Of a stretch of 64,000 nt of DNA, positions 6,451 through 56,514 are shown piece by piece. A program made the position numbers and the translations under genes. Within the stretch, counting starts at the first letter, position 1; each line of letters opens with the position of its first letter. The notes under the pieces were generated by a model. The model did not search any database. It was not told where the DNA came from and saw nothing but the letters and a program-made list of their open reading frames with translations. This DNA is from Somniosus microcephalus (taxonomy: Eukaryota). The stretch spans positions 407,526,001 to 407,590,000 of the forward strand of contig CM126202.1 in assembly GCA_052327205.1 (NCBI GenBank), read 5' to 3'.

Positions 6451-7194
6451 AGCATTGGGAGTCGATCTTAATCCTACCCAGCAGGTGAGTGGTTAAAAAC
6501 GAGCAGGTTACTTACCCACTCAGATCTGGACCATTTGCAATGTTAACATCCAGAGTTTTGCAGGTAGATGAGGCGCATGCCTGAAACAGGTGGGAGCCTC
6601 GTATATTTATGCAAACCGGGGTCCTGTACATCAATACCCCGATGCAATTTTAACCAGGGCTTGACTGGGGACGTGCCTTTCCCACTAGGGAGAAGCAGAT
6701 CTGCAGCTGGTGCAAAGACAGAAGAGGCCTTTTTGGCAAGTCTAAAACCTCTCTCTGTGGCAGCAGGAGAAGCAGGAGTGTCCGGCGGTTAAAATCACTG
6801 AACTCCTGCTGCCTCTGCCAGGCAGAAAATTACCTCACCAGAAACCCGCTTCGAGTCAAAATCCACCTCGTGGTATAATTTATGTAAGCCATATTTGTGG
6901 CTAAGAATTCAATTTTGTTTGGTTTTGCAATTAAGCATTATGGCTTCGATTTCCCAATTCCCATTCCACCAGTGGAAGTGCAGCAGATATGCACATCTAC
7001 TCATGGATCCCGCCACTGACCTCGCCAGATTTCCCGGGGTCAGTGCTTTTACATAATTATCAGAAGGTTCCCGCTGATTGAGCGCAAGTGCCTGTAGGAG
7101 TGGAAACTCAGATGTTGCTACAGGTTTTAAAAGCCATTGTTAGCTTAAGGATGATGGAACAGCAGAAGGAATATGGGAGAGGAGGTGAGGAGTT

Positions 7195-7830
7195 ATGACA
7201 GCTGGAAGACCTGCAGAAAATAGAGCATTAAACTTCACTAACTCCCAGATAAACGTCCTCTTGGAAGCAATGAGGGCAAGGCAGGCACAACCTTTTGGTG
7301 CACAGGGCAAGAGACACATTGAGGACACACTGGAAGGAGAAGCAGTTAGTACCGCCTCCACCACGTTCAGATTAGCAACTCAGTACCAACAAAATTGTAA
7401 TCGCTTGGCCAGAATGGGTAAGGTAAGTGCATGACCCACCTCATTAAATGTTGCCCAAGCAGCACCTTGTATGTTGGCCTCTTGGCACAATCCGTGTCTC
7501 AGTGTAGCATGTGCTGCCTGTAGTGAAGCACTAAGACTCACCCCAGCTGGATAATGCCTAATCCCCAGCAACCCACGTGCTTCCCATTTAAACTGCACTC
7601 CGAGCCCTACGAGTGGCATAGTTATGAGTCTTGAAGTTTGCATATAGTCAATGGGTGCCTTTCCAAATTCCCACGACATAAAACCAGGATGTTATCATAT
7701 GACCTAGGCTACATTTGCATTACAGGAAAAGACACCACATAATGCAAAATTAGTCCACAGGGAGAGTGACGAGTTGATCCCCAAATAGGGGGAGGGACTC
7801 AGCATCATAGGACGTCCAGTGACGGGAGCT
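7195..7830 (+). pseudogene. Harbinger Myb/SANT-like DNA-binding protein, degenerate, 2 exons
   Basis: RALNFTNSQINVLLEAM...NRLARMGK then gtaagt donor; acceptor ttacag then EKTPHNA at ~7725. Confidence 0.6.
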
Positions 7831-8140
7831 GAAGAGGTTGGTAGGCCAGTGTCAGAAATAGGTTTGCACATAAATGAAACACTTCTGGCCTCTAAAGCTT
7901 CAGCAGACAAAATGTGCCTTCAGCACGTTGTGATTGGACTGCACTCTGAAAGATTCAGAGGAGCTCAGTGGTGAAAGGCCTCAGATTCATTTGTTGCTCT
8001 GTCCTCCATCCAGATGAAATGCATCCAGATGTGGCTAATGCCATGGAGCAAGAGCAGCACTCCCACTCTAGTTACCAACCCACCAGAACACCATGAGCAA
8101 ACATTACCATTTCAAGTGCAAGGTTATAGACAAGCACCTA

Positions 8141-12316: not shown

Positions 12317-13292
12317 GGCCTAGAAATTCAGATGGTTTGCGCCACCCGTTACCACCATGAATTGGTAAAAAAAAGTAAACCAGCGCTTTTCCGCCAGCTG
12401 GTGGCAGGTCCCATGGCAGCAGCCATTTTTCGGTAGGTCGCCAGCACTGCCGTTACCTGCCATCGGCGAAAGTATTTTAATGAGCCGGAGTGTGACATGA
12501 AATGGCGTACAACGCCGAGTTGACGCCAGCTCATCTGTTTTGGAGTTCACTGCACCCACTGCCGCCCACTCTAAATCACACCAGTGAGTGCTGTTGCTGA
12601 AAGATGTTTCAGCAGCGTTAACAGCCATGAGGTGTTTGACAGGACTTAGGAGGATGGACGCTGACAAGTGGAAAACACCTCAGATTGATGCCAGAACTTC
12701 AAACGTCTCCTTTGCCAAGGTTATTCTTCAAAACTTTCAATTTTTGCTCACCCCCTAGCAAATCTGGACTCAACTGCTTAAGATTTTAAAGAATCATAAA
12801 TAATTTATTCAAAATTCCATAGCCAATTATTAATCAAATAATAATATTGTGTCGAGTATGTAAGACCCACTAAATGCTGCCATGATGACTACACATTTAA
12901 ACACTTTCAAGAGTAACCAATGGGGAAAGATTAGTGTGACAGAGAACACAGATGCATTCATTCCATAAACTATTAAAAAATCCACCAACATCGGGTGGCA
13001 GCTAATATTTTTGGAGCAAGTACAGCAACTGTTCGGGACGCTCCTTTCTTCCCGCTCCCCTACACTGCAAGCGGGAGACAGAGGTGATCTTTGGCCTCCT
13101 TCTGAGATTAGCGCAGCAAAGAGCGCGTTCCACTAGAAAATCACTGCCACACTAGAAAATCACCGCCACGCTGATGTTAATGAGCAGACAGTGCCAAAAT
13201 GCCGGTACTGCCTGTGGTCTCTCAGCTGGCGGCCGTTATCCTTGGCCGCCAATGTTACCGGCAGGTTTCCAGCATTCCCCAATTTCTAGGCC
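12317..13292. mobile_element. Harbinger-type non-autonomous element
   Basis: Perfect 12-bp TIR ggcctagaaatt / aatttctaggcc, the same TIR as 51342-52039. Confidence 0.75.
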
Positions 13293-15800: not shown

Positions 15801-17063
15801 GCCACAGTTTGAAGTCAGCAACAACTCAAAATGAGATCATGGATCATTTCTCAGCCTCCTGCACACCCACCCAACACACTCCTAGGAGAGAGGGATTACC
15901 AAAACAAACTACCGTATCCAACTGTCCCAAGATTATCATAGTCGAGAATCATACAGCACAGAAGGAGGCCATTCGGCCCATCGTGCCTGTGCCGGCTCTT
16001 TGAAACAGCTATCCAACTATTCCCACTCCCCTCCTCTATCCCCATTTCACTATTTAAATTTCTTTCCACAATGAGCCTTTAAAATGTTTTCCTGAAGATG
16101 CTGATTCCTTCTGATACAGAACCATAGCTGCTGAATACTCTCTGCATAGGTGCAATCACTGGGCCGGATGAGGGGGGTTACACGCCACCACATATTTTTG
16201 ACATGGGTTATCTCCTAATTAAATCTTGGAATTACTCCGCCCCCAAACTCTTGCTGGGGTATGGATTCAACAAGTGTCACCGGCCATCCACTATCTCAAC
16301 CAACTGGTCCTTCTTCACGTGGGGGCCGAGACAGTGGGTGTCATTAGGATATTCGACCATGGTTGGAACATCACAGCTGAGCCTTAACCTGACATCCACA
16401 CAGTCTAGCAAGGGTCACTGAGCAGCAATCAAAAATGAGAGCCTTCATTAATTGTTCCCCCTCTCTAGCCTAGGGACACTGAGGTAATTTTAATACAAAT
16501 CATTTTCATTCATCAGTATTGGACTGCACCCAAATCTTGAACAACATCCAAAGGCCACATCAAATTCGATAAGTGGCAACTTTCAAATCATGTATTTGCC
16601 ATCCAGCCTATGTTAGGATTGACATTTTACTTCATTTTATATATCACTAGCTGGAGTACCCGGCATTGCCAAGGGAACTGAAGAACCCTCTGCCATGTTT
16701 ATAAAACTGTTTATAAAACTGTTGGGATTGAAGAACTCTTCCTAAGCACTCAGGAGGTGGTTCTTTAACTTCGTTTTTTGTTAATGGGGATCGCCAGTAG
16801 CCATATACTCCAGGTTTTATAGTTTTGGGTATGTCTCGCCTGGTCAACAGCTTGCCGTGCCTGAGTCTGGTCAGAAGTCTCTGAGGCTCTGGCTTAGGTA
16901 TGTCTCGCCTGGTCAACAGCTTGCCGTGCCTGAGTCTGGTCAGGAGTCTCTGACTCCCCCCTCCCTCTCTGTCCCCCTCCCTCCCTCACCCTCTCTCCCT
17001 CCCTCCCTTCAGGGGAAGGAGAGAGAGAGAGGGGGGAAGGAGAGAGAGAGAGGGGGAAGGAGA

Positions 17064-19281
17064 AATATGCAAAAAACTGGAAAAGCTCGAAATGGCCATA
17101 AAAGATAACCAAAACCCGCTAGACTCCATAATAACAGAAAAAGAACTAGTTGAAAAACTCAAGGACCTGCGACCAGGAAAAGCTTGCGGTGCAGACGGCA
17201 TACTAAGCGAGATGATTAAACACACAGACGATAAAATGAAACTGGCTATCCTAAAACTCTTCAACTTGGTTCTGAGTGTCGGTTACTTCCCTGATATCTG
17301 GAACAAAGGACTCATAATGCCCATATACAAAAGTGGGGACAAAGTCGACCCAAATAACTATCGAGGCATCTGTGTAAACAGTAACCTGGGGAAGGTATTC
17401 TGTAGTATCATAAACAAAAGACTTATAAACTTCCTTGAGGAGCACAATGTCTTGAGTAAAAGCCAAATTGGATTCCTGCCAAACTATAGAACATCAGATC
17501 ATATCTTCACCCTACAGACCCTAATTGACAAACACGTTCATCAAAACAAAAGCAAAATCTACGCATGCTTTATAGATTTCCAGAAGGCTTTCGATTCCAT
17601 CTGGCACGACGGTTTATTCCTGAAACTTATCGAAAGCGGGGTAGGGGGAAAAACATATGATGTAATTAAATCAATGTATACAAACAACAAATGTGCAGTT
17701 AAAATTGGAGAAAAACAAACAAAATACTTCCCACAGGGGCGGGGGGTGACGCAGGGCTCGCCCATCTCACCGACACTCTTTAATATTTACATAAATGAAT
17801 TGGCAAAACTACTTGAACAATCTACAGCACCTGGCCTCACCCTATATGAATCCAAGGTTAAATTCCTCCTCTATGCAGATGACCTGGTTCTGCTGTCACC
17901 AACTAAGGAGGGTCTACAGCAGAACCTGGATCTGCTGGAGTCGTTCTGCCAGACCTGGGCCCTGACAATAAATCCCCAAAAAACCAAAGTCCTTGTGTTC
18001 CAGCAAAGATCCAGACATCAGGGACCCAAAATAAATTTCACACTAGGAACAACCAAAATTGAACAAACCACTAACTACACATACTTGGGCTTAAAAATCA
18101 GTTCTACGGGAAATTTTCATCTGGCTGTGAATGAACTGAAAGAGAAAGCAAGAAGGGCTTTCTATGCCATTAAAAAATCAATCCAAATAGAAATCCCAAT
18201 TAGCATTTGGCTCAAAATTTTTAAATCAGTAATTGAACCAATGGCAGTGAGGTGTGGGGACTGCTAACACAACAAGAATTTGCAAAATGGGACAAACACC
18301 CAATTGAGGTCCTACATGCAGAATTCTGTAAAAGTATCCTCCGGACTCAAAGGAAAACCGTAAACAATGCATGCAGGGCAGAACTAGGCCAATATCCATT
18401 AATAATCACTATCCAAAAAAGAGCCACCAAATTTTGGAAACACCTAGAAATGAGCAACCCCCAATGCTATCATTACGAAGCCCTGAAATGCCAAGAGAGG
18501 ACCATAAAGAAGAATACCGTCAGTCAACTAGTCCTGGGACTCAGTGAAGTAACTACTAACACTACTAACAATAACCAGCCCCAGGACAGTGACAGCGTAA
18601 CACAAAGAATTCGACCCAACACAATCGTCGCTAAGCAAAAGGAAAAATATCTGTCATATTGGACAGAAACAACAAAAACCCAAAGCAAACTCAATTGCTA
18701 CTTGGCCCTAAACAGACAATACAACATGGCTGATTACCTGACCATGGTAAAGGATAGCAAACTGAGAAAAACCTTGACAATGTACAGACTTAGTGAACAT
18801 AGCCTGGCGATCGAAAAAGGTAGACACAGGCAGACCTGGCTACCAAGAGAGGACAGGATATGCTCTCACTGCAGTCAGGGAGTGGTGGAGACAGAGATGC
18901 ACTTCCTCACAGCTTGTAGAAAATATCAGGGCATAAGGGAGAATTTCTACCCAAAATTCACAAAAATATGCCCGGAATTCAGAAATTTGAATGACGACCA
19001 AAAACTCCCATACCTACTAGGGGAAGAGAGAAATTGTGTAACCTTAGTGGCACACTATGTTACAGCTTGCCATAAACAGAGGGACAACCACTAAATATAA
19101 GAAAAGAGTATATACAAATTATATGAAGTATATTTATACACTCAGGGATATATCTGTTTATACACTGTATGGATAGATCTGTATTTTTGTGTACAACCAT
19201 GAATGTTTTTCGATGTTTTGGCAACATAAGATGTACCTTGTCATGCCAATAAAGCGATTTGAATTGAATTGAAATTGAATT
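17064..19281 (+). mobile_element. 5'-truncated RTE-X-like non-LTR retrotransposon inserted in a GA satellite
   Basis: RT plus C-terminal RLSEHSLAIEKGR..RICSHC..ETEMHFL..C motif; AATAAA + (TTGAA)n tail running into gagagag. Confidence 0.85.
17092..19094 (+). pseudogene. RTE-X reverse transcriptase ORF, one frameshift (~18245), no endonuclease domain
   Basis: ORFs 17092-18267 (FIDFQKAFD, QGSPISP, LYADD) and 18252-19094. Confidence 0.88.
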
Positions 19282-19447
19282 GAGAGAGANNNNNNNNNNN
19301 NNNNNNNNNNNNNNNNNNNNNNNNNNNNNNNNNNNNNNNNNNNNNNNNNNNNNNNNNNNNNNNNNNNNNNNNNNNNNNNNNNNNNNNNNNNNNNNNNNNN
19401 NNNNNNNNNNNNNNNNNNNNNNNNNNNNNNNNNNNNNNNNNNNNNNN

Positions 19448-19906
19448 GGGGAAGGAGAGAGAGAGGGGGAAGGAGAGAGAGAGAGGGGGAAGGAGAGAGA
19501 GGGGGAAGGAGAGAGAGAGGGGGAAGGAGAGAGAGAGAGAGAGGGAAGGAGAGAGAGAGAGGGAAGGAGAGAGAGAAGGAAGAGGAGAGAGAGAGAGGGA
19601 AGGAGATAGAGAAGAGAGGAAGACACCCCGGGGAAGGGGTTGGACTCAGAGCCCGGCCCGGTGTCCCAGAGCCCCCATGCGCGGCATAGCACCTCAGGCC
19701 CGGCCGGAGTGACCCCAGCTCAGCTCCCGCTACGGCCCGCTGCCGGAGAGAGAGAGAGAGGGAAGGAGAGAGAGGGGGAAGGAGCGAGAGAGAGAGGGGG
19801 AAGGAGAGAGAGGGGGAAGGAGAGAGAGAGAGAGGGGGAAGGGGAGAGAGAGAGGGGGGAAGGAGCGAGAGAGAGAGGGGGAAGGAGAGAGAGAGAGGGG
19901 GAAGGA
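19448..19906. repeat. (ggggaaggagagagaga)n satellite with assembly gaps
   Basis: Directly visible; N runs on both sides. Confidence 0.9.
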
Positions 19907-20705
19907 NNNNNNNNNNNNNNNNNNNNNNNNNNNNNNNNNNNNNNNNNNNNNNNNNNNNNNNNNNNNNNNNNNNNNNNNNNNNNNNNNNNNNNNNNNNNNN
20001 NNNNNNNNNNNNNNNNNNNNNNNNNNNNNNNNNNNNNNNNNNNNNNNNNNNNNNNNGAAGACACCCCGGGGAAGGGGTTGGACTTAGAGCCCAGCCTTGG
20101 TGACCCAGAGCCCCCATGCGCGGCGTAGCGCCTCAGGCCCGGCCCGAGTGACCCCAGCTCAGCTCCCGCTCCGGCCTGCCACCGCCGCTCCCCTGCTCGA
20201 TGTCTTTCGGGCTCTCAGGCCACACGGGTGTATCTGTCTCTGTGTGTGAATGCTCACTGTCTATCGGGCTCTCGGGCCGCGTGGTTGTCTCTGTCTATGT
20301 CTGTGTATCTGTTTTCCCAGTCCCGCACTCACGGCAGGCTGCAGGATTAGGCCCCACCCACACACGCCATGAAATGCCCCCCATGATGCACTGCGCTTCC
20401 CCCGTAGGACTGGTCAACCATCACATCACTCAACGCTAATGAGCGGATTTTGTCCGTTTTTTGAAAGTTTTCTGTATACTGTCCAAGTAATCTTTGTCTG
20501 ACCAAAAAGTAAATATGCCTATGACACTCCCCTAATCATAAGCTTTCTTTTGATATAACATATGTGCAGGTAAGCTCTATAACCTTTGAGTTTACCGCGG
20601 ACATACACACAGACAGACAGACAGACAGATCCATTTATATATATAAAATAATAACTAGCTGGAGTGCCCGGCGGTGCCGAGGGTTTTTTGAGGGCATGTT
20701 GTTGT

Positions 20706-22330
20706 TGGAAGAGAGTGAGAGAGTGACTGGGGGGAAGAAAGAGAGCGACTTGGGGGAAGAGAGAGAGCGACGGGGGGAAGAGAGAGAGCGACTGGGGGAA
20801 GAGAGAGAGCGACTGGGGGGAAGAGAGACAGCGACTGGGGGAAGAGAGAGAGCGACTGGGGGGAAGAGAGCGAGCGACTGGGGGGAAGAGAGAGATGACT
20901 GGGGGGAAGAGAGAGACGACTGGGGGAAGAGAGAGAGCGAAGGGGGGAAGAGAGAGAACGACTGGGGGCAAGAGAGAGAGCGACTGGGGGGAAGAGAGAG
21001 AGCGACTGGGGGGAAGAGAGAGAGTGACGGGGGAAGAGAGAGAGCGACTGGGGGAAGAGAGAGAGCGACTGGGGGGAAGAGAGAGAGAGCGACTGGGGGG
21101 AAGAGAGAGAGAGAGCGACGGGGGGAAGAGAGAGAGCGACTGGGAGGAAGAGAGAGAGCGACGGGGGGAAGAGAGAGAGCGACTGGGGGGAAGAGAGAGA
21201 GAGCGACTGGGGGGAAGAGAGAGAGTGACTGGGGGGAAGAGAGAGCGCGACTGGGGGGAAGAGAGAGATGACTGGGGGGAAGAGAGAGACGACTGGGGGA
21301 AGAGAGAGAGCGAAGGGGGGAAGAGAGAGAACGACTGGGGGCAAGAGAGAGAGCGACTGGGGGGAAGAGAGAGAGCGACTGGGGGGAAGAGAGAGAGTGA
21401 CGGGGGAAGAGAGAGAGCGACTGGGGGAAGAGAGAGAGCGACTGGGGGGAAGAGAGAGAGAGCGACTGGGGGGAAGAGAGAGAGAGAGCGACGGGGGGAA
21501 GAGAGAGAGCGACTGGGAGGAAGAGAGAGAGCGACGGGGGGAAGAGAGAGAGCGACTGGGGGGAAGAGAGAGAGAGCGACTGGGGGGAAGAGAGAGAGTG
21601 ACTGGGGGGAAGAGAGAGCGCGACTAGGGGGAAGGGGGGAAAGGGGGGGAAAGGGGGGGAAGGGGGGAAAGGGGGGAAAGGGGAGGGGAGGAAAGGGGAG
21701 GGGAGGGGGGGAAAGGGGGGAAAGGGGAGGGGAGGGGAAGGGGGAAAGGGGAGGAAAGGGGAGGGGAGGGGGAAAGGGATGGGGAGGGGGGAAAGGAGGA
21801 GGAAGGGGGGGAANNNNNNNNNNNNNNNNNNNNNNNNNNNNNNNNNNNNNNNNNNNNNNNNNNNNNNNNNNNNNNNNNNNNNNNNNNNNNNNNNNNNNNN
21901 NNNNNNNNNNNNNNNNNNNNNNNNNNNNNNNNNNNNNNNNNNNNNNNNNNNNNNNNNNNNNNNNNNNNNNNNNNNNNNNNNNNNNNNNNNNNNNNNNNNN
22001 NNNNNNNNNNNNNNNNNNNNNNNNNNNNNNNNNNNNNNNNNNNNNNNNNNNNNNNNNNNNNNNNNNNNNNNNNNNNNNNNNNNNNNGGGAGGAGCGAGGG
22101 GGAGGGAAGGGGGCGGGGGGAGGGGGAGGAGGGAGGAGGAGAGGGGGGGAGGAGGGAGGGAGGGGGGAGGAGGGAGGGGAGCGGGAGGAGGGAGGGGGAG
22201 AGGGGGGAGGGGGAAGAGGGGGGAGGGGGGGAGGAGGGAGAGCGGGGGAGAGGGGAGGGGGAGGGGAGAGGAGGGGGAGGAGGAGGGGGAGGGGAGGGGA
22301 GGGGTGGGGGAGGTGGGGGAAGGAGGGGGG
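20706..22330. repeat. ~22-bp (gagcgactggggggaagagaga)n satellite with a ~373-bp higher-order repeat, then G/A low complexity
   Basis: The variant block at ~20895 recurs at ~21268. Confidence 0.92.
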
Positions 22331-22645
22331 AGCCAGCAGACCCTCTCCCCTCTGCCGGCGATGGCTCCGCTGAGCTCCGTGCCGCCCCACGCACTGACAT
22401 GCCGAGCGCAGCGCCCCGGTCAACCCGAGCCCCGCCCTCCCGAGGCCGGGCCGGCTTGAGACGGCCGATTGCGGCTGGCCGGGCCCGGTTGCCTTGGTAA
22501 CCCTCCTCCCCTCTCCGCTTCCTGATCTCCGGGACCGGGCCTGAGCGGCTTGAGACGGCCGATTGCGGCTGGCGAGCCCAGTTGCCGGGGTAACCCTTTC
22601 CGCTCCCCCTCCCCTCCCGAGCCCGGATTCCTCCTGGTCCTCGCC

Positions 22646-23543
22646 TCAGGTGGCACTGGCACTGGCAGCTTCAGCGCGTTGAGCCCGAGTTGGTGCTGCT
22701 TCATCTGAAAGTGGGAGGTGGAAGAGTGGCTTTAGCAAAAGGACAGGTTTGCTGAAAGGCATGCCAGATTGCGGCAAGGCTCTGACATGGCTGTACACTG
22801 AGGATGCATGCTGGCGGGGGGACCAAGTGGAAGGCAACAGGTGGAAAAGGTGAGAGTCTTACCCTCGCTGTCAGTAATTGGGTCGGCAGATGCAGTGGTC
22901 ACTGGACCAGACAGACGTCCTCCAAGTATCTGGTGCACTCTCTGCTCCAGATCCGTGAGAGTGACCACTTGTGCAGGTCCGCCACCGGTTCGACGCTGCT
23001 CCTTTCTAATCTGTGCCATCTTGGACTGCAGGGGAAAGAAGGGGAGGTTCTGTTACATGAGGCCTTGAGACCTCATCGCATGCCCCCCATGGTGCAAGAG
23101 CCCTTACATGAGGCCTTGAGACCTCATCGCATGCCCCCCATGGTGCAAGAGCCCTTACATGAGGCCTTGAGACATCTGTCCATGTGTGTGGCCAGAAAGG
23201 GCCATGGGTGCATACTGACAGATGGCCATTGGGGCATCATTGCAGCAGGGTGCCCGAAGTCAGCTGCAGATGGAGGGAAGCACAAGTTTGGTAAACCATC
23301 ACTCACCCTAACGATCCGTGTGAGGTCATTGAATTTCTTCCTGCACTGAACAGGGGTCCTGGTCGCCATGCTGCTGGAATTCACCCTCACAGCAACCTCC
23401 CTCCAAGATCGTCGATAAGCCTTCTGATTTGGCCTCTTGCCATTATCCGGATACAGGACCTCTCGACGGTGTTCAACTGCAGCCACCAAGTGGTCCAGAG
23501 CCTCAGTGCTGAAGCGCTCTGCTCTCTGCCTAACCTTCTCCAT
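22646..23543 (-). CDS. Myb/SANT-like DNA-binding protein (Harbinger-derived), 3 exons 23543-23307, 23025-22863, 22704-22646, ~152 aa, C-terminally short
   Basis: FSTEALDHL..W..VA..VN..RTPVQCRKKFNDL; exon 2 KMAQIRKEQRRTGGGP..LTDLEQRV; canonical GT/AG sites, compatible phases (0,1), no internal stop. Confidence 0.75.
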
Positions 23544-23902
23544 AATGCACAAGTTTCTAACGCCAGACAAGGGCGAGCGCCGAATCTGAGGCCTACAGGG
23601 CGTTGGGTGTTTAAGCTCAGTCTGACTGACCCGCCCCTTTAAGAGCCGGCCGGCGCCTGTAGGTCTCGTGCTTTCCCGTAATTGAGTTCACCTGCGCTGC
23701 ACCCGTCTGCGTCGATATTGAGTAGCGCCTGGCCTTTTGCGCCTTAAGAGCACCATGCAACGGCTGATTTAGCGCCTCAATCCCCTTTAGGGGCGATGCA
23801 ACCCAATATCGCGCCAGTCGGCGATAAGTTTCGTCTGGCTATAAACTTTGCGCATCGCCAGTTCTAACGCCTCAAGCGGGGCTATACCCAATTTCTGGGC
23901 CT
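22650..23902 (-). mobile_element. One-ended Harbinger fragment inside Helitron B
   Basis: TIR-like aatttctgggcc at ~23891-23902; Helitron homology to unit C resumes at tgtgttttaaaagcaac; no second TIR and no transposase. Confidence 0.7.
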
Positions 23903-23969
23903 ATGTGTTTTAAAAGCAACTTTTTTTTTAAAGACGCAGAAAGCGGGAAAAAGAAATGAAAAGTTTGGA

Positions 23970-24200
23970 ATCAAGATGGCAGCGACTCACCTCGGTTCAG
24001 AACGATAAGGCCCGCCCACACACGCACCGATTGGTCGACCGTCAGGTCACCGAAGCGTAGGATTGGTCAATCGTCCCATCACTCAACTCTAGGAGGGCTC
24101 GCCCGCAAGCGCCAGGAACCCACCCCCGCCCCCGCCACGCAGCGATTGGTCGACCGTCGGGTCACTCGACCGTACGATTGGTCGAACTCGACGTCACTCG
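23970..24200 (-). promoter_or_regulatory. Promoter-like module in Helitron B: 4 CCAAT boxes, GC boxes, CRE-like and YY1-like motifs
   Basis: gattgg at 24029, 24061, 24144, 24176 (pairs 32 bp apart); ccgccc; acgtca; aagatggc. Confidence 0.55.
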
Positions 24201-24474
24201 ATGCTAATGAGCGGATAATGAGCGGAATGTTGAACGTTTTTTGGATACCGTGGGCGCAATTTTTGTCTCGCCGAAACGTAAATACGCTTATGACAGTTCT
24301 GGAATCGTAAGCTTTCTTTTGATGTAACACACGTGTAGGTACGCTCTATAACTTTCGAGTTTATACAATACAGACAGACAAACAGACAGACGGAATGACA
24401 GACAGACAGATCGACCGCTTTATATATATAGATGCCCGGCGGTGCCGAGGCTTTTTCGAGGGCATGTTGTTGTT

Positions 24475-25915
24475 GGAAGAGAGAGAGCGACTGGGGGGGA
24501 AGAGAGAGAGCGACTGGGGGGGAAGACAGAGCGCGACTGGGGGGGAAGAGAGAGCGACTGGGGGGGAAGAGAGAGAGAGAGCGACGGGGGGAAGAGAGAG
24601 AGAGAGCGACTGCGGGGGGAAGAGAAAGAGAGAGCGACTGGGGGGGAAGAGAGCGAGAGAGCGACTGGGGGGGAAGAGAGAGAGCGACTGGGGGGAAGAG
24701 AGAGAGCGACTGGGGGGGAAGAGAGAGAGCGACTGGGGGGGAAGAGAGAGAGCGACTGGGGGGGAAGAGAGAGAGCGACTGGGGGGGAAGAGAGAGAGCA
24801 ACTGAGGGGAAGAGAGAGAGCGACTGGGGGGAAGAGAGAGAGAGAGCAACTGGGGGGGAGAGAGAGAGCGACTGGGGGGAAGAGAGAGAGCGCCTGGAGG
24901 GAAGAGAGAGAGCGACTGGGGGGAAGAGAGAGAGCAACTGGGGGAAGAGAGAGAGCGACTGGGGGGAAGAGAGAGCGCGACTGGGGGGAAGAGAGAGAGC
25001 GACTGGGGGGAAGAGAGAGAGCGACTGGGGGGAAGAGAGCGAGCGACTGGGGGGAAGTGAGAGAGCGACTGGGGGGAAGAGAGAGAGCGACTGGGGGGAA
25101 GAGAGAGAGCGACTGGGGGGAAGAGAGAGAGCGACTGGGGGGAAGAGAGAGAGCGACTGGGGGGAAGAGAGAGAGCGACTGGGGGGAAGAGAGAGAGCGA
25201 CTGGGGGAAGAGAGAGAGCGACTGGGGGAAGAGAGAGAGAGCGACTGGGGGGAAGAGAGAGAGCGACTGGGGGGAAGAGAGTGAGCGACTGGGGGGAAGA
25301 GAGAGCGACTGGGTGGGAAGAGAGAGAGCGACTGGGGGGAAGAGAGAGAGCGACTGGGGGGAAGAGAGAGAGCGACTGGGGGGAAGAGAGAGCGAGAGAC
25401 TGGGGGAGAGAGAGAGAGAGACTGGGGGAGAGAGAGCGAGAGACTGGGGGAGAGAGAGAGCGAGAGACTGGGGGAGAGAGAGAGAGAGAGAGACTGGGGG
25501 GGAGAGAGAGAGAGAGAGACTGGGGGAGAGAGAGAGAGAGAGACTGGGGGAGAGAGAGAGAGAGAGAGACTGGGGAAGAGAGAGAGAGAGACTGGGGGAG
25601 AGAGAGAGATAGAGACTGGGGGGGAGAGAGAGAGAGACTGGGGGAGAGNNNNNNNNNNNNNNNNNNNNNNNNNNNNNNNNNNNNNNNNNNNNNNNNNNNN
25701 NNNNNNNNNNNNNNNNNNNNNNNNNNNNNNNNNNNNNNNNNNNNNNNNNNNNNNNNNNNNNNNNNNNNNNNNNNNNNNNNNAGAGAGACGGGGGGGAAAG
25801 AGAGAGAGAGAGACTGGGGGAGAGAGAGAGAGAGAGACTGGGGGAGAGAGAGAGAGACTGGGGGAGAGAGAGAGAGACTGGGGGAGAAGAGAGAGAGAGA
25901 GAGACTGGGGGGAGA
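24475..25915. repeat. GA-rich ~22-bp satellite of Helitron C
   Basis: Same unit as in B, grading to gagactgggggagagaga. Confidence 0.92.
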
Positions 25916-26734
25916 CTCACCGCCGCCGCCAACTACTCGCAGCACGTTTGCAGCCGGCCGTCTGATGGCGCGGCGCTCCGAGGTCAGGTAAGGAGGAGGG
26001 CAGCGGGTAGACTGGAGCCCTGGGCCTGGCCTCCCGCTCAGAGCCCGGGAGCCCCGGGGCGGTGGCACTGCCTGCAGCAGGCAGAGAGCAGCCCCGAGTC
26101 CCCCCTGCGTGAGGAGGAGGAGGGGCTGCGGCGGAAAACGCTGCCCTGCTCACAGCCATCAAAGCAGGAGCGTGTTTCTTCCTCCGGCCGGCCAATCGCG
26201 GCCTGGCGCTTCAGGCCCGGCCGGGCTCTCGGGACGAGACTGAACACGGGGGCGGGGTCAACAGCCCTGGGTGGACGTGCGCCGTGCGCGTGCCTCCGGG
26301 GCTTGTTGTTGTTGGCGGTTGCACTGAGGCTGCAGCGCGAGTGCGAATGAAGTTTGAGCAACTTCCAAGCAGATTGAGTTGTCCTGCCGCAGCCTCAGTT
26401 CCGCCCCACCAGCCTTTACAAAGATAGCGGTGGTGGCTATGTTCGGCTCAGACCCGCCCGGCCAGCCTTTAGAAAGATGGCGGCGATTGCGGGCCGCTTG
26501 TTGAGTGGGACGGGAGGTGCCTAGCTCGGGCGTGGCTGGGCAACAGAGGCCGAGGCTTCAAGGCCTAGAAAAACGGTGAAAGGTAGGAAAATTAATGAGG
26601 TTAGAGAAAAGATTTACAAATTAATTAATTTTTTTTTAAAACAATTTGTGTTTTAAAAGCAACTTTTTTTTTGCTGGAAATCTAGGTTTGAAAATAAACA
26701 CGCAGAAAGTGGGAAAAAGAAATGAAGAGTTAGG

Positions 26735-26960
26735 AATCAAGATGGCGGCCACTCATCTCAGCTCAGAAGGTTTAGGCCCGCCCACACACGCACCGATTGG
26801 TCAACCATCAGGTCACTGAACTGTAGGATTGGTCAATCATCACGTCACTCAACTCTAGGATGGCCCGCCCGCACACGCAATGAACCTGCCCCCGCGATGC
26901 AGCGATTGGTCAACCGTCAGGCCGCTCGACTGTACGATTGGTCAACCTTCACGTCACTCA
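26735..26960 (-). promoter_or_regulatory. Promoter-like module in Helitron C
   Basis: gattgg at 26795, 26827, 26904, 26936; YY1 aagatggcggc; cacgtcac twice. Confidence 0.55.
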
Positions 26961-28319
26961 ATGCTAATGAGCGGATAATGAGCGGAATTTTCAACATTTT
27001 TTGGATAACGCCTGAACAATTTTTGTCTGACCAAAAAGTAAATACGCTTATAACCATTCCAGAATCATAAGCTTTCTTTTGATATAACACATGTGTAGGT
27101 ACGCTCTATAACTTTTGAGTGTATAGAGTACATACAGACAGACAGACGGAAGGACAGACAGACAGACAGAAGAGCTATTTTATACATATAGATTATTAAC
27201 ATTTGTGCTCAGGATCTTTGTCTCAAATTCAAAGAACTGAGTGTCCTACTCCTTTCTTCCTCATGTGCTTATCTAGCTTCCCCTTAAATGCATATGGGAA
27301 AGCTAGATAAGTTACATCAGTTACTAGCAGCACTGCAGCTGGGTAGCTTCAGTGAATGAAAGTGAATGCATTGAATTACACCACTAAGTTATTTTGGTCA
27401 TCCGTTGCCCAGCATGTGTGCCTTCTGACTTTCTCCAGTTGAAAGGGCGCGCTAGCAATCTCTTCCAAGCTTCTTTCACTGTAATGAGAGAAGCTCCCGA
27501 GATCAGAAATCAGTGTTGGAACACTCTCTTTTGGGACCCAGTAACAATTGAATCCACAACAAAAGTTCACAAGTTTGAATCCCAGCACTGGCTCATTCAT
27601 CAATTGACTTTGTTTATACGCTGGCACAGTCTCACCAATTCTCAACTAGTTCTCCAACATAATATTAAGTAATTACTTCGGGTGCAATAAAAAATACACC
27701 TGAATTCCACTGCCTGCTGGCTAGTCTCACAGTGACATTGCTGGTAAGCACGGGAAAGTACACAGACACAAGAAGGCATGGCAGTAAGAGTAGCTGGCCA
27801 AAGGGAGAGGAACATTTAAAAAATGTTTTGTAAATTTTCAATTTTTGATTCAGAACATGCCTCAACAAGCTCTTTGCCCAGAGTAATACAATCCAATCAT
27901 TGCAAAGATCAATAAAAGCAAAAAGTGAAAGACCACTGAAAAGCTAAACAGCGCACTGGGTGAACAAGTTCACTCTCACTCAGTAGGTGAGGTCCCCATT
28001 GTCCTTTACGTTTAGTGTTTTGTTTAGTCTGTGCTCCACTTGCCACGGGTTAGTGGCTCAGGTTTCATTTCCCTAATTGATCAGGAGATGCAGCATTTCC
28101 TCCTAAGACTGCATCATTTCCAGTGTGTTGACAGCAACAGGAAGAAAAGCAGCCAAGCCAGAATCAACTGAGGTGAGAGAAAATGGGGTATGAATTCCAG
28201 CAGCACTCAAAGGGAAATTCTACACGGTCACTCTGCATTTACCTCCCTCCTAACATTTAACAGTCATACTGATCTACTGGCTCTTTTTGAACTTTTAGAA
28301 GGGGTTCATTTTCTACTCT

Positions 28320-40519: not shown

Positions 40520-41336
40520 GGGGTCGATTTTCCTGGAGCCATCAGGCGGGGTTTCAGGCGTGTGGGGGGGGAAAATCCCGAATTCGGGAGTCCCGACACC
40601 ATCCCGCCCAAAACCCCGCTCCACGCAAGTTTCAGAGGCGGCGGGTACCCGCCCTGCACTGGGACCCGCCGACCCCAGGCGGGAAGGGATTAGTGCCAAT
40701 TAACTGCCTGTTAACAGGTAGTTAACAGGCAGTTTTTAGCCTAATCCCTATTTTGAGGGGTGTCGTGTGGGATTCCCGACGGCTCCAAACCATGCCAGGT
40801 TAGAGCAGGCGGGCCGTCGGGTTGAAGGAGTTGGAGGGGTCGCGATGTCGGTGTTCAGGTGAGTGATGGGTGCATGAGTGCAAAGGTAAGTGTGTTTGGT
40901 GTGTCCAAAGTGTGTAAAGAACTTTTAACTTACCTGTACTTACCTTAACAGCCTTTCTTCCTGTAGGCGTCGAGAGCGCATCACTCAGCCGGCACTTAAA
41001 GCTGAATGGCTGCGATCTGTGAAAAGTGACAGCCTTCAGCTTTGAGTGCTGCTGAGAGTTCTAACTGAGTCTGTGCAGAAGGACTCAGGTTAGAACTCAG
41101 ACTGTCAGTGTTTGGCAGCTTCAAACAGCTGTGAAACACTGATATTTCATCTGTCAAGAACTCTTGACAGATGAAATTGCAGTCTGTGACGTCACCTGTT
41201 GCTGGGTGGCCCTTAATTGGCCTGCTGAGCCCGCTGGGAAAATCGCACGGATTGGCTGGACGTCGATGTAGGCGGGTCTAAAACCCAAAAGTTGTAGTCT
41301 CGCCTTCTTCCCGACAGCTTCGGGAAAATCAACCCC
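40520..41336 (+). mobile_element. Harbinger-type MITE, TSD ATA
   Basis: TIR ggggtcgattttcc / ggaaaatcaacccc; ATA on both flanks. Confidence 0.85.
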
Positions 41337-41475
41337 ATAGACTTTGATTTAATCTCTTGCTGTTCCTTTTTTTTTCATTCCTTTAACTAGTTGAACAACC
41401 TCAGTGGAACGATCTCGGAAGGAGTATGGGAATTCAGGCCAATTCTTCTGGCAAACACAAAGACGCAGACACAAG

Positions 41476-42299
41476 GGGCTGGATTTTCATTGAGGAGGTG
41501 TGTAGGAGGCGGAACTACAACGTTCGGGGTTGTAGTCCCGCCTCCATCGAGTTGTGGCCAACCCACGCGATTTTCACTTGATTGACCTTGTTGAGCCCAC
41601 CCAGTGGGCTCAGCAGGCCAATTAAGGGCCACCCGGCAACAGGCGATGTCACAGATTGACATTTCATCTGTCAAAAGCTTTTGACAGATGAAATATCAGC
41701 GTTTGACAGCTGTCAATCTGTACTCCAAGTTAATTCCTTCCTCTCAGGCTGATTTAGAGATCTCTCCAGAACAGAAGGCTGAATGCTGCAACTTTTGACA
41801 GCTCACGGCCATTCTGCTTTCTATGCCGGTGAGATGAGGGACTCCCGAGACCTGAAGGAAGGAAGGCTGTAAAGGTAAGTAAATGTAAGTAAAACTTCTT
41901 TAAACACTTTACAAACACCAAACACACTTACCTCTGCACTCATGCACCCATCACTCACCTGAACACCAGACATCTCGAACCCTCCAAGACCTTCAGCCCG
42001 ACGGCCCGCCTCGCTAACTTGGCGTGGTTTGGAACCGTCGGGAATCCCACACTTCAGCAATAAAAATAGGGATTAGGCTAAAAACTGCCTGTTAACTACC
42101 TGTTAATAGGCAGTTAATTGGCACTAATCCCCTTCCCACCTCGGGGAGGTGGGTCCCAGCACAGGTTGGGTATCCGCCTCCTTTGAAACTGGCATGGAGG
42201 CAGGTTGGGGGCAGGATGGGTTTTTGGCCCCCGATTTTGAGATTTTAACCCCCCACATGCCTCCAATCCCGCCTCCACGGCCCAATGAAAATCCTGCCC
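41476..42299 (-). mobile_element. Related MITE in inverted orientation, TSD AAG
   Basis: TIR gggctggattttca / tgaaaatcctgccc; the body is the reverse complement of the 40520 element. Confidence 0.85.
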
Positions 42300-51341: not shown

Positions 51342-52039
51342 GGCCTAGAAATTCGGTATGGCCCCGCCAGGTCTTTTGCGCCCGAAATTTAGCGCTCGCC
51401 AGGATTCCCGTAGCGCCCACCTAAAATTCAGTTGCGACGGGCCAAGACGGCGGCGGGCGCTATTGCAGGGTTTGGCCGCCTCGCTAGGGGCGTTAAATGT
51501 CACTTTCAGGCGTTCAGCTCCCGCTGCGGCACCCGATGCGGTGCGGCAGGCTGGGGTACTGCAGGCCTCCTCCTTCTCTTAAGGAGGAGCTGCCTACAGC
51601 CGTCAGATCACCGGTGGATTCCCCCGGCAAATGAGCCCGGCACCACGGAGAAGTGCCGGGCTCGCGGGACACAGACATCAGTGCCGCGGGGGGGTGGTGC
51701 AGGAGTCCGGGGAGGGAGGTGCGGGCAGGCGGCCGCCGGGAAAGCGGCCGGCCGCCGCTCCACCTTTATGCGCCGGCCTTTCGGAGCTGCAAGACCCCGT
51801 TTCACAAACGCTGTTTGCGGCTGCCACAGGCGAGGCGGCCGCAACTGAATTTGGCCATCGGGCCAGAATAGCATTGCAACCGGGGCGCTGCGCACACCGA
51901 TGACGTCATCGGTGCCGGCGCAGCGCTACCGGCTAACGCCGATGTTAGGGTCCATCTGAATTTCGGGCGGTAAAAAACTTTAGGCGCAAACCACTTTATA
52001 GCCAATAAGTGGGTGCAAACGCAACTGAATTTCTAGGCC
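51342..52039. mobile_element. Harbinger-type MITE, TSD CAC
   Basis: Perfect TIR ggcctagaaattc / gaatttctaggcc; CAC on both flanks; CpG-rich. Confidence 0.9.
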
Positions 52040-53036: not shown

Positions 53037-55022
53037 TTACATGTAGCATGACATGAACCCAAGATCTCGGTTGAGGCCATCCTCATGGGTGCGGAACTTG
53101 GCTATCAGTTTCTGCTCGACGATTTTGCGTTGTCGTGTGTCTCGAAGGCCACCTTGGAGAATGCTTACCCGAAGATCGGAGGCTGAATGTCCTTGACTGC
53201 TGAAGTGTTCCCCGACTGGGAGGGAACACTCCTGCCTGGTGATTGTTGCGCGGTGTCCGTTCATCCGTTGTCGCAGTGTCTGCATGGTCTCGCCGATGTA
53301 CCATGCTCCGGGGCATCCTTTCCTGCAACGTATGAGGTAGACAACGTTGGCCGAGTCACATGAGTATGTACCATGTACCTGGTGGGTGGTGTCCTCACGT
53401 GTGATGATGGTATCTGTGTTGATGATCTAGCATGTCTTGCAGAAGTTGCTGTGGCAGGGTTGTGTGGTGTCGTGGTCGCTGTTCTCCTGAAAGCTGGGTA
53501 ATTTGCTGCGAACGATGGTCTGTTTGAGGTTAGGCGGCTGTTTGAAAGCGAGTAGTGGAGGCGTGGGGATGGCCTTAGTGAGGTGTTCGTCGTCATCAAT
53601 GACATGTTGAAGGCTGCGAAGAACATGGCGTAGTTTCTCCGCTCTGGGGAAGTACTGGACGACGAAGGGTACTCTGTTGGTTGTGTCCCGTGTTTGTCTT
53701 CTGAGGAGGTCTATGCGATTTTTCGCTGTGGCCCGTCGGAACTGTCGATCGACGAGTCGAGTGTCATATCCCGTTCTTACAAGGGCGTCTTTCAGTGTTT
53801 GTAGGTGTCCATCGCGTTCCTCCTCGTCTGAGCAGATCCTGTGTATTCGCAGGGCTTGTCCATACGGGATGGCTTCTTTAACGTGGTTAGGGTGGAAGCT
53901 GGAGAAGTGAAGCATCGTGAGGTTGTCCGTGGGCTTGCGGTAGAGTGAAGTGCTGAGGTGTCCGTCTTTGATGGAGATTCGTGTGTCCAGGAATGAGACT
54001 GATTCTGAGGAGTAGTCCATGGTGAGTTTGATGGTGGGATGGAACTTGTTGATGTTATCGTGTAGTCTTTTCAGTGATTCTTCGCCGTGGGTCCATAGGA
54101 AGAAAATGTCGTCGATGTATCTGGTGTATAGCGTTAGTTGGAGATCCTGTGCAGCGAAGAAGTCTTGCTCGAACTTGTGCATGAAGATGTTTGCGTATTG
54201 GGGTGCAAATTTGGTCCCCATGGCTGTTCCGTGTGTTTGGGTAAAGAACTGGTTGTCGAAGGTGAAGACATTGTGGTCAAGGATGAAGCGGATGAGTTGT
54301 AGGATGGCGTCTGGAGATTGGCTGTTGTTGGTGTTGAGTACTGAGGCTGTCGCAGCGATGCCGTCATCGTGGGGGATACTGGTGTAAAGTGCCGAGACGT
54401 CCATCGTGGCGAGGAGTGTTCCTGGTTCAACTGGTCCGTGGGTGCTGAGCTTCTGTAAGAAGTCTGTAGTGTCGCGACAGAAGCTGGGGGTTCCCTGTAC
54501 GATGGGTTTCAGGATGCCCTCGACACATCCAGAGAGGTTCTCACACAGGGTTCCGTTGCCTGATGCGATAGGACGTCCAGGTGTGTTGGCTTTGTGTATC
54601 TTTGGGAGGCAGTAGAAGTCTCCCACGTGGGGAGTACGTGGGATGAGAGCATGTTGGATGCTTTGAAGGTCTGGATCGAAGGTTTTGATCAGTCTGTTGA
54701 GTTGGCGGGTGTGTTCTTTGGTCGGATCTGCGGGTAACTGTCTGTAGTGTTCCTGGTTGTCCAGTTGTCGGTATACTTCTTTGCAATAGTCCGTTCTGTT
54801 CTGTATGACGATGGCACCTCCTTTGTTTGCTGGTTTGATGACGATGTTGCGGTTGGTCTTGAGAGCGTGGATGGCGTTGCGTTGTGCTCGGGTGACATTG
54901 TGAGTGCGGCTGATGAATCTGGCGTTGATGCATCTCCTGACAGCTTGAGCATACATGTCAAGCTTAGGGCAGCGACCCTCCGGAGGGGTCCAATTTGACT
55001 CTTTCTTCTTCGGTTGCTGCAC
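53037..55022 (-). pseudogene. Penelope RT-GIY-YIG ORF with a single in-frame stop at 53427
   Basis: FYCLPKIHK, MDVSALYT, GTAMG, RYIDD; Cys linker PCHSNFCKTC; VVY..WYIGET..RMNGH in the same frame. Confidence 0.92.
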
Positions 55023-56514
55023 TGCGGATCCCTCTGTCTGCTGTTCCGGATCATTGATTGTCTCATTGGGTTCGCTGCTGACATCTTGGGATTTGTGGAA
55101 GAATTCCCGGAGCCTTTAAGGGAGGGAAGGAGCCCTTGAACGCGGCAGCGCAGCATGGCCCAGTGTGCAGCGCTGCTGAAGTCTCCGCCCCGCTCTGCGA
55201 TGTCAGCACCCTAAGAAGGAAGTGGCGCATTTGATTTAGCGCTCCACATCTCTCTTAGGGCGCTAAAACTCAATTTCATAGTCGTCAGTGCTAAATAGCG
55301 CCCAGGCGACGTTAGCACCCCAAAATGGTCGATACCGAATTTCTCTAAATCTCTTTGTCTTGCTACATCTCAATCTTCTTTCAAAAACCTCCTTTAAATT
55401 TACCCCTTCAACTGTACTTTCAGTTAGCTCTCCTAATGTCTGTCCTATTTTCTGCTAGGTTATCATGACTCTCCATAGATGATCTTGGAACATTTTGTTA
55501 TGTGAAAAGTTCCGCATAAATGTGAATTGTTGTTGTCTTCTGTAGAATGTAGTGCTGTTTTAAGACATTTTTCTCACAAATATATTTTCTGGTGTGGCAT
55601 TGGATAATTGGAAGTGCGGTTGTTAATGTGTTTCTACCTCCTGGAGGATTTCAAATAAGAATACTTAATAGGTTGTGAATAAGCCAATGTCTCACCAACA
55701 AGACGCCATCATAACTATCAGAGAACCACAAGCCAGACTCTGAAGCAGGGAGTCAAATTCTCTAGACAGCAAAGAGCTTTCATCAGAAAATAGGAAGTAA
55801 CATTTGTTCAGCAACAATGAGAATCACGGATTTATGTAGCAACCCACTTTTTTTTTAAAACCTGCTTGATATTTCCATTTATAATGCATAGCAGTCTCAA
55901 ACTTTCTGTGGATGTTTCCCCCTCCAATTTTCTTTCCTCTTCTCCTAAATTTCCTAACTCCTGTTGTGGCTGCATAGGCTATGGTCAACCTCTGGTACCT
56001 CACCCACATGACCATTCTTCATGTGTGAGTGCTATGCAGTAAATGTCAACAGGTTTAGCAAGTGTGCGGAATAATACAGCCAAGTCTGATCCTGACCTTG
56101 CCCGAGGTTCACCTTTATATGTACTTTGTAGTAGGGGCCACTGGTTAGCAATCTGGGCAGCAGGCCTGACTGATAATTTCCCCTCCCTATTCCTCTACCA
56201 CAATTCCAATGAGATTGGCTCACCTCAGGGATCGGCCTTGGAATCCTAGGAAGTGTCACCTGTTCGTTGGGAGACAGCAGACTGGCCAGATGTACAGTGG
56301 TATAGTCAGAAAGCAGTAAACAGCAATAACTGTGCTGGGACATTCTTCTGAGTCACTGCTGTAATCAAATACTGATTACCGCACCAGCAGGTGTCTGAAT
56401 GAATCACTCACACACAGTTCCCTCAAACACAGCTTTCAAGGTCTGGGACCTGGGGGCTAGAGGCTATTTCAAGAACTTTGATTATAAAGGTATGAGACAA
56501 CATCCGACCAATAA

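Follow-up and report, generated by a model that had tools for sequence, protein, structure and literature searches.

Helitrons of bats carry promoters, splice donors, DNA transposons and nested retrogenes, and some of them were amplified after a secondary insertion, according to the available text of PMC4224331, in which HelibatN211 and HelibatN424 are examples with a nested retrogene. HelibatN3 carries the promoter and splice donor of NUBPL, and this donor is spliced to downstream acceptors (PMC4778049, available portion). The same portion gives the hallmarks of the Helraiser Helitron as a 5′ TC and a 3′ CTAG, with a hairpin about 11 nt upstream of the latter. The Myb proteins of Harbinger transposons bind a 9-bp subterminal motif and carry the transposase into the nucleus, as described in the accessible parts of PMC9710019 and PMC9392472, by which the results on Harbinger3_DR quoted here are relayed second-hand. 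Expression of Harbinger Myb genes at the family level has been reported in newt (PMC5741667, in part), and the genes MSANTD1 to MSANTD4 are described as single-copy, syntenic, 275 to 559 aa in length and under negative selection (PMC9392472, accessible part). In the literature surveyed, which was mainly open-access and left Repbase aside, no report of a Helitron with a Harbinger Myb gene was found, and the supplementary tables on bat Helitrons may list such cargo.

In the 64,000-nucleotide stretch of DNA that was analysed (the window), three related Helitron-like units, designated A, B and C, are arranged head to tail, and unit B contains a piece of a Harbinger transposon with a Myb gene (Table 1). 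A 5′ TC after an A was found in units B (24432) and C (27192) and is degenerate in unit A. At the 3′ end of unit B (20655) there is a CTAG before a T, with a hairpin of a 6-bp stem (−4.1 kcal/mol) located 12 nt from the end; a second CTAG-type 3′ end is present at 16647, and unit C retains the hairpin without the CTAG. These termini match the hallmarks given for Helraiser in the available portion of PMC4778049, and positions 23929 to 24433 and 26695 to 27193 were 83% alike in a blastn comparison. The element is dispersed and multi-copy, with three units in the window and thousands of contigs in three of the public sequencing runs described below. Neither a RepHel protein nor a DDE transposase was found among the 44 stop-free stretches of at least 45 aa between 19600 and 27300 (low-complexity stretches and N gaps excluded). 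The piece in unit B is therefore a Harbinger fragment and not a complete element, as far as the transposase is concerned, in keeping with the first-pass annotation, which had stated that no transposase came along.

Table 1. Positions of the Helitron-like units, the Harbinger piece and the Myb gene in the window.
Feature	Position	Strand	Description	Support or remark
Unit A, Helitron-like	16647..20648	-	LINE-like reverse-transcriptase frame inside	Probably ends at CTAG 16647; pairing of the ends is likely
Unit B, non-autonomous Helitron-like, with Harbinger piece	20655..24432	-	TC/CTAG termini	83-84% to unit C at both ends
Unit B distal part	20655..22332	-	Low-complexity tract, 273-N gap, 22-bp satellite, Helitron 3′ end	
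GC-rich repeat segment	22345..22622	-	Internal duplication	Repetitive in all four aligned runs
Myb exon 3, start	22623..22704	-	Premature stop 22648-22646, then acidic linker to break at 22623	
Intron 2	22705..22862	-	158 nt, GT-AG	Mostly retained; minority of RNA reads spliced
Myb exon 2	22863..23025	-	163 nt	43% to P0009 residues 140-187
Intron 1	23026..23306	-	281 nt, GT-AG	Holds 51-bp tandem duplication
Myb exon 1	23307..23543	-	237 nt, phase 0, 79 codons, Myb/SANT domain	PF13873; 66 homologs
Harbinger subterminal region	23544..23889	-	GC box at 23636	Putative own promoter of the Myb gene
Harbinger-type terminal inverted repeat (TIR)	23890..23901	-	Single end	
Helitron 5′ segment	23904..24432	-	Common to unit C and partly unit A	blastn and alignment
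Splice-donor consensus	23985..23993	-	GT at 23990	GT lost in unit C
Promoter-like module	24012..24183	-	Tandem pair of blocks, with two CCAAT boxes and one GC box in either	
Unit C, sister Helitron-like unit	24433..27192	-	No Harbinger piece (empty site)	Final bases including CTAG missing

LINE-like frames are abundant in the window, and four N gaps lie between 19290 and 25781. In unit A, two long LINE-like reverse-transcriptase frames lie on the plus strand at 16954 to 19094, between the 5′ part of the unit and the CTAG at 16647. Outside of the array, nested long inverted repeats (88 to 92%) at 40681 to 42136 are probably a foldback or MITE-like element, and the minus strand at 53037 to 55115 contains a reverse-transcriptase-like frame of 562 aa and, after it, a short one that we take to resemble a GIY-YIG nuclease, as in Penelope-like elements. 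The GC-rich segment of unit B was evaluated for homology to the middles of units A and C, and this was rejected at scores of 42 and 37 in comparison to shuffle maxima of 44 and 52. The palindromes in this segment (22345 to 22622) presumably resemble RFX X-boxes, and the segment is possibly a second captured promoter fragment.

As claimed in the first-pass annotation, the CCAAT/GC-box module and the splice donor are co-oriented with the Myb gene, all being on the minus strand. The CCAAT boxes start at 24181, 24149, 24066 and 24034, in pairs 32 bp apart, and the GC boxes at 24131 and 24017. The CCAAT-box 8-mer occurs eight times in the window, always in units B and C, relative to an expected 2.26, a number reached in none of 100 shuffles; the CpG observed/expected ratio of the module was 1.31, compared to 0.44 for the window. 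A candidate acceptor is present at 23556, 13 nt before the ATG of the Myb gene. Just past the donor there is a motif that we take to be YY1-like, in both unit B (23975 to 23985) and unit C (26740 to 26750), and motifs of the units would presumably also include NF-Y sites. The middle of unit C (25920 to 26560) is CpG-rich and bears sites that resemble an acceptor (near 26563) and a donor (near 25920), and because of these sites Helitron units without a Harbinger piece also resemble promoter/exon cassettes.

The gene model of three exons with canonical splice sites was confirmed. The joined minus-strand frame of the three GT-AG exons encodes 152 aa up to the stop codon at 22648 to 22646, and in a Pfam scan exon 1 matched Myb_DNA-bind_5 (PF13873) with an E value of 3.6e-10 and 40.1 bits (cut-off 21.7). 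A HMMER search yielded 66 matches to exon 1, the closest of which is about 55% identical across the exon; the taxa of 20 of the 66 comprised 17 sharks, rays or skates, 2 teleosts and 1 entry without a taxon, a distribution that suggests a cartilaginous fish as the source of the window. In the homolog P0009, residues 65 to 138 correspond to exon 1 and residues 140 to 187 to exon 2 (21 of 49 identical), as a gapless continuation of one protein. Because exon 2 continues the homologs of exon 1, intron 1 is backed independently of its splice consensus. The median homolog length is 314 aa (at least 200 aa in 56 of the 66), and the acidic linker encoded after the stop aligns with homologs that continue into a C-terminal region absent here.

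Other searches gave no further relatives: none of the 104 and none of the 19 candidates from two word-based protein searches were related (weak evidence; homologs were found by HMMER), a PDB sequence search gave a single match that was not meaningful (E 0.31), and scans of a metagenome collection unlikely to contain the host gave 595 pattern matches, of which none were confirmed, and no match to the junction pattern. Intron 1 contains a 51-bp tandem duplication (23053 to 23173; 2.4 copies, 100% identical) that is either recent or an assembly artefact. Among the proteins compared, a cluster represented by P0008 (409 to 420 aa, 90% clustering, four ray species in three genera) is a Myb relative that may represent a Harbinger Myb gene domesticated in rays.

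Units B and C share 26 identical bases up to 23904, and three bases further on unit B enters a 12-bp end, with the Myb gene starting 358 bp inside of it. This arrangement fits what would be expected of a PIF/Harbinger end. No second end of this type was found in the 19 to 27 kb array, in agreement with the description of the Harbinger piece as one-ended. The same 12-bp TIR is present as inverted pairs at 12317 to 13292 and 51342 to 52039, the latter flanked by a perfect 3-bp repeat and the former by a repeat matching at 2 of 3 positions. The 51342 to 52039 element shares 46 subterminal 8-mers with the unit B end, relative to 19 expected (0 of 200 shuffles), whereas the 12317 to 13292 element shares 16, relative to 18 expected. 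Thus, the many MITE ends proposed in the first-pass annotation exist in the form of TIR pairs, but there are just two in the window and subterminal words are shared by the second only. Since the target of Harbinger Myb proteins is a subterminal motif of 9 bp, a common 12-bp TIR does not predict Myb binding; a clear repeated 9-bp binding motif was not found in the subterminal region of the unit B end. On the plus strand at 7190 to 8140, the window contains what appears to be an older, decayed Harbinger-type Myb relic with the same layout of exons 1 and 2, which gave weak tblastn matches from three homologs and is without a Pfam match.

Other copies of this stretch were evaluated by aligning 4 of 17 listed public sequencing runs to positions 22345 to 24440 at 90% likeness. 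Three of these consist of contigs, namely X5 (organism A, 2018 contigs aligned), X2 (organism B, 8712) and X4 (organism C, 3204), and the fourth, X15, consists of RNA reads of organism B. The three organisms are probably sharks or other cartilaginous fishes. All 30 of 30 bins were covered in each run, and therefore the whole stretch is a repeat, depth in these runs being different from copy number. The idea that X5 is a transcriptome was rejected; its depth peaks within intron 1 between PstI sites, which would fit reduced-representation DNA.

At the position of the stop codon (22648 to 22646), a glycine codon was present in 58 of 62 RNA reads and in 98.0, 98.7 and 98.7% of the contig depth. 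The glycine codon was absent from 4 of the 62 reads, and so the stop may be common to a few copies. The 152-aa frame would thus be an accident of the window copy or of a small sub-lineage. A short regulatory product had been proposed in the first-pass annotation, and this is not supported, given the absence of the stop from 94 to 99% of the aligned material and the median homolog length of 314 aa. At 22623, 52 reads (median of 39 loose letters), 2 contigs of X2 and 2 of X4 depart from the window sequence, and no joint returns to it afterwards; the 30-letter consensus of the loose ends, read by hand, provides ten further in-frame codons. These departures and the in-frame consensus indicate that most copies hold more of the Myb gene than the window copy does.

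Taken together, these findings are best explained, with a probability of roughly 70% in our estimation, by the window locus being one decayed member of a subfamily of non-autonomous Helitrons that multiplied a Harbinger Myb gene nested within them. In the proposed sequence of events, a Harbinger element would have landed immediately behind the promoter-like 5′ module of a non-autonomous Helitron, and rolling-circle transposition by the Helitron would have copied the nested piece, giving rise to a large subfamily that is now found in three or more related organisms (probably cartilaginous fishes). The copy in the window would be a decayed member of the head-to-tail Helitron array, probably without function, with a nonsense codon at position 153 and a break at 22623 that are both particular to it. 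The RNA of the family would be mostly pass-through and antisense, plus a weak sense RNA seemingly from the Harbinger's own promoter.

Unit C matches unit B as far as 23904, which lies three bases from the TIR, and this supports the preferred reading, as does the behavior of the family at position 23897, four bases inside of the TIR. Here all 75 of the 75 RNA reads, together with 93, 38 and 23 contigs, carry a family letter from which the window copy differs, and the TIR of the other copies is an exact match to the TIR of both MITE pairs. The contigs covering 23897 end 17 to 18 letters away and so reach into the Helitron flank, and the share that continues into unlike sequence was 0. An alternative is that a local nested insertion was followed by deletion, such that the depth comes from free Harbinger elements and ordinary Helitrons and the composite exists in one or a few copies. 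It would account for the absence of a fully bridging contig (a 31-letter two-sided bridge of the 5′ junction) among the 24 of 13,960 pieces listed, in which record 16 of X4 ends at the TIR, and for the 22623 junction not being common to most reads. It would also account for the drop in X2 depth from 83,000 at 22625 to 22694 to between 13,000 and 22,000 in the distal segment. However, contigs that end 17 to 18 letters away make up the near-complete depth at 23897, no pile of loose ends was present at 23901 among the 24 of 551 listed, and the RNA depth passes over the junction without a dip (64, about 75 and 90). We therefore consider a local insertion unlikely. On indirect evidence, the Helitron-Harbinger junction appears to be common to many copies; as for the copy number of the junction, it looks multi-copy by 23897 depth and contig ends, but it was not bridged by 31 letters in the pieces listed.

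The RNA data were obtained from run X15, of which 16.65 million reads (about 24% of the run) were searched and 2523 aligned. Organism B may not be the species of the window, and the reads inform on the family, none being assignable to the locus. Only 74 of the 2523 reads were at least 99% alike to the window, and expression of the window copy itself is thus not supported. The joint of intron 2 (22704/22863) proposed from the sequence was supported by 12 reads with 3 starts between them, the first mate always lying on the plus strand (taken as the sense channel), and intron 2 is therefore spliced in the RNA of the family. The joint of intron 1 (23307/23025) was not among the 13 joints listed, although sense depth drops in this intron and poor alignment at the start of exon 2 may hide the joint. 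The sense depth was 25 to 42 in exon 1, 4.6 to 8.8 in intron 1, 53 in mid exon 2 and 73 to 79 in intron 2. Upstream of the ATG it was 4 to 6 at 23548 to 23557, 5.8 at 23535 to 23604 and 0.8 at 23605 to 23674. Antisense depth was greater than sense depth over most of the gene, at 52 to 160 in the introns and 33 at 23605 to 23674.

The first-pass annotation had envisaged a transposon-in-transposon chimeric gene, in which the Helitron module drives a spliced transcript and the 152-aa product binds MITE ends as a repressor or regulator. The nested part of this idea stood, in that a Harbinger Myb gene lies within a Helitron, whereas drive by the Helitron module was not supported. The Myb domain and splice sites are intact, the module, the donor and a possible acceptor at 23556 are in place, one related MITE is present in the window (51342 to 52039), and the donor of bat HelibatN3 is spliced to downstream acceptors in the available text of PMC4778049. 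A shortened Myb protein as a competitor is also conceivable, as Harbinger Myb proteins bind DNA and import the transposase. Against this, the stop is a rare variant, few reads are close to the window copy, and Harbinger Myb proteins inherently lack catalytic activity and recognise a subterminal motif of 9 bp (PMC9710019, accessible part). In addition, no joint from the 23990 donor was found among the 13 listed (3% threshold, one RNA run), and sense depth is nearly nil from the module to the ATG. Such a chimeric repressor is, in our view, very improbable. Because the sense depth is nearly nil between the module and the start of the Myb gene, use of the Harbinger's own promoter fits these data, with a weak sense RNA starting near the ATG on top of antisense pass-through. 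These readings are from one run with few distinct molecules, and the donor may be used in other tissues.

The gene-like appearance of the sense RNA, with little depth in intron 1 and splicing of intron 2, is a counterpoint to interpreting the family as decayed. It is consistent with the existence of a subfamily master, in which a full-length, working Myb gene is maintained under purifying selection inside the Helitron, the window copy still being dead. The product might, for example, be a DNA-binding or anti-silencing helper, or supply Myb protein to Harbinger elements in trans. The family frame is open through codon 153 and past the 22623 break, and the Myb-bearing form seems to be a sizeable fraction of the copies that bear the module, the ratio of depth at 23897 to that at 23981 being 0.64 in X2 and 0.14 in X4 (depth is not copy number).

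The exon differences between the window copy and the family were evaluated for selection. Among the 40 of 388 differences listed, eight are in the exons, namely the stop, 5 synonymous changes and 2 nonsynonymous changes. The 5 of 7 synonymous changes, compared to an expected fraction of 0.245, give P = 0.012 (P = 0.025 when the stop is counted), and if there was one founding insertion these changes arose inside the Helitron. This excess of synonymous changes is a hint of selection somewhere in the history of the family. The evidence is offset by the small number of sites and by the comparison with the noncoding rate (3 of 347 nonsynonymous sites versus 17 of 797, P = 0.15), in which the deficit is not significant, and either free Harbinger copies or CpG decay could have produced the differences. 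Furthermore, intron 2 is mostly retained and its joint is based on 3 starts, no 3′ part of the family gene appeared in the aligned runs, and the two word searches gave no close protein relative, which is weak evidence. A selected master therefore appears distinctly unlikely, and it is more doubtful still that a Helitron lineage adopted the whole Harbinger Myb gene, multiplied it to hundreds or thousands of copies in several species of sharks and maintained it by selection. If this were true, the Helitron would use a Harbinger DNA-binding protein for targeting or anti-silencing, or alternatively the genome would be flooded with a protein acting on Harbinger ends, and a full-length selected cargo would demonstrate that two classes of transposons exchange proteins.

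Under our preferred reading of a decayed member in a Helitron subfamily with amplified Myb cargo, the amplification of nested transposon genes by Helitrons beside promoter-like modules could be one way in which the many Myb-like gene models annotated in sharks and rays arose. The locus also calls for caution, in that a neat, short, spliced frame in one copy of a repeat can be a private nonsense mutation.

In comparison to the described systems, unit B resembles Harbinger elements in that its short TIR is also found in a MITE with a 3-bp flanking repeat. Its gene resembles the Myb ORF of the Harbinger3_DR type and the related shark proteins, which carry the annotation "myb-related transcription factor, partner of profilin-like", in the N-terminal PF13873 domain, the continuity of the exons and the acidic linker. 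It differs from a Harbinger Myb ORF in its length of 152 aa, compared to about 300 to 400 aa (PMC9710019, accessible part), and in having neither a transposase nor a second TIR. Like NAIF1 and MSANTD1 to MSANTD4, the unit B gene has a Harbinger Myb-like domain, three exons and no transposase; unlike these domesticated, single-copy genes, it is a high-copy repeat that lies inside a mobile element and has a rare stop. The closest likeness is to the non-autonomous Helitrons of bats, with which unit B shares the TC and CTAG termini, the absence of RepHel, a promoter-like 5′ part with a splice donor and, apparently, a co-amplified secondary insertion. Unlike the exon trap of HelibatN3, the unit B donor was not found spliced among the 13 joints listed from one RNA run, and the host is probably a shark. 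The cargo of unit B differs from those of bat Helitrons, being a Harbinger Myb gene with introns that starts at its TIR, and the promoter-like module may be either a captured host promoter or the Helitron's own. Read in this way, the locus is an example, probably from a cartilaginous fish, of the known principle that Helitrons amplify nested transposon genes.
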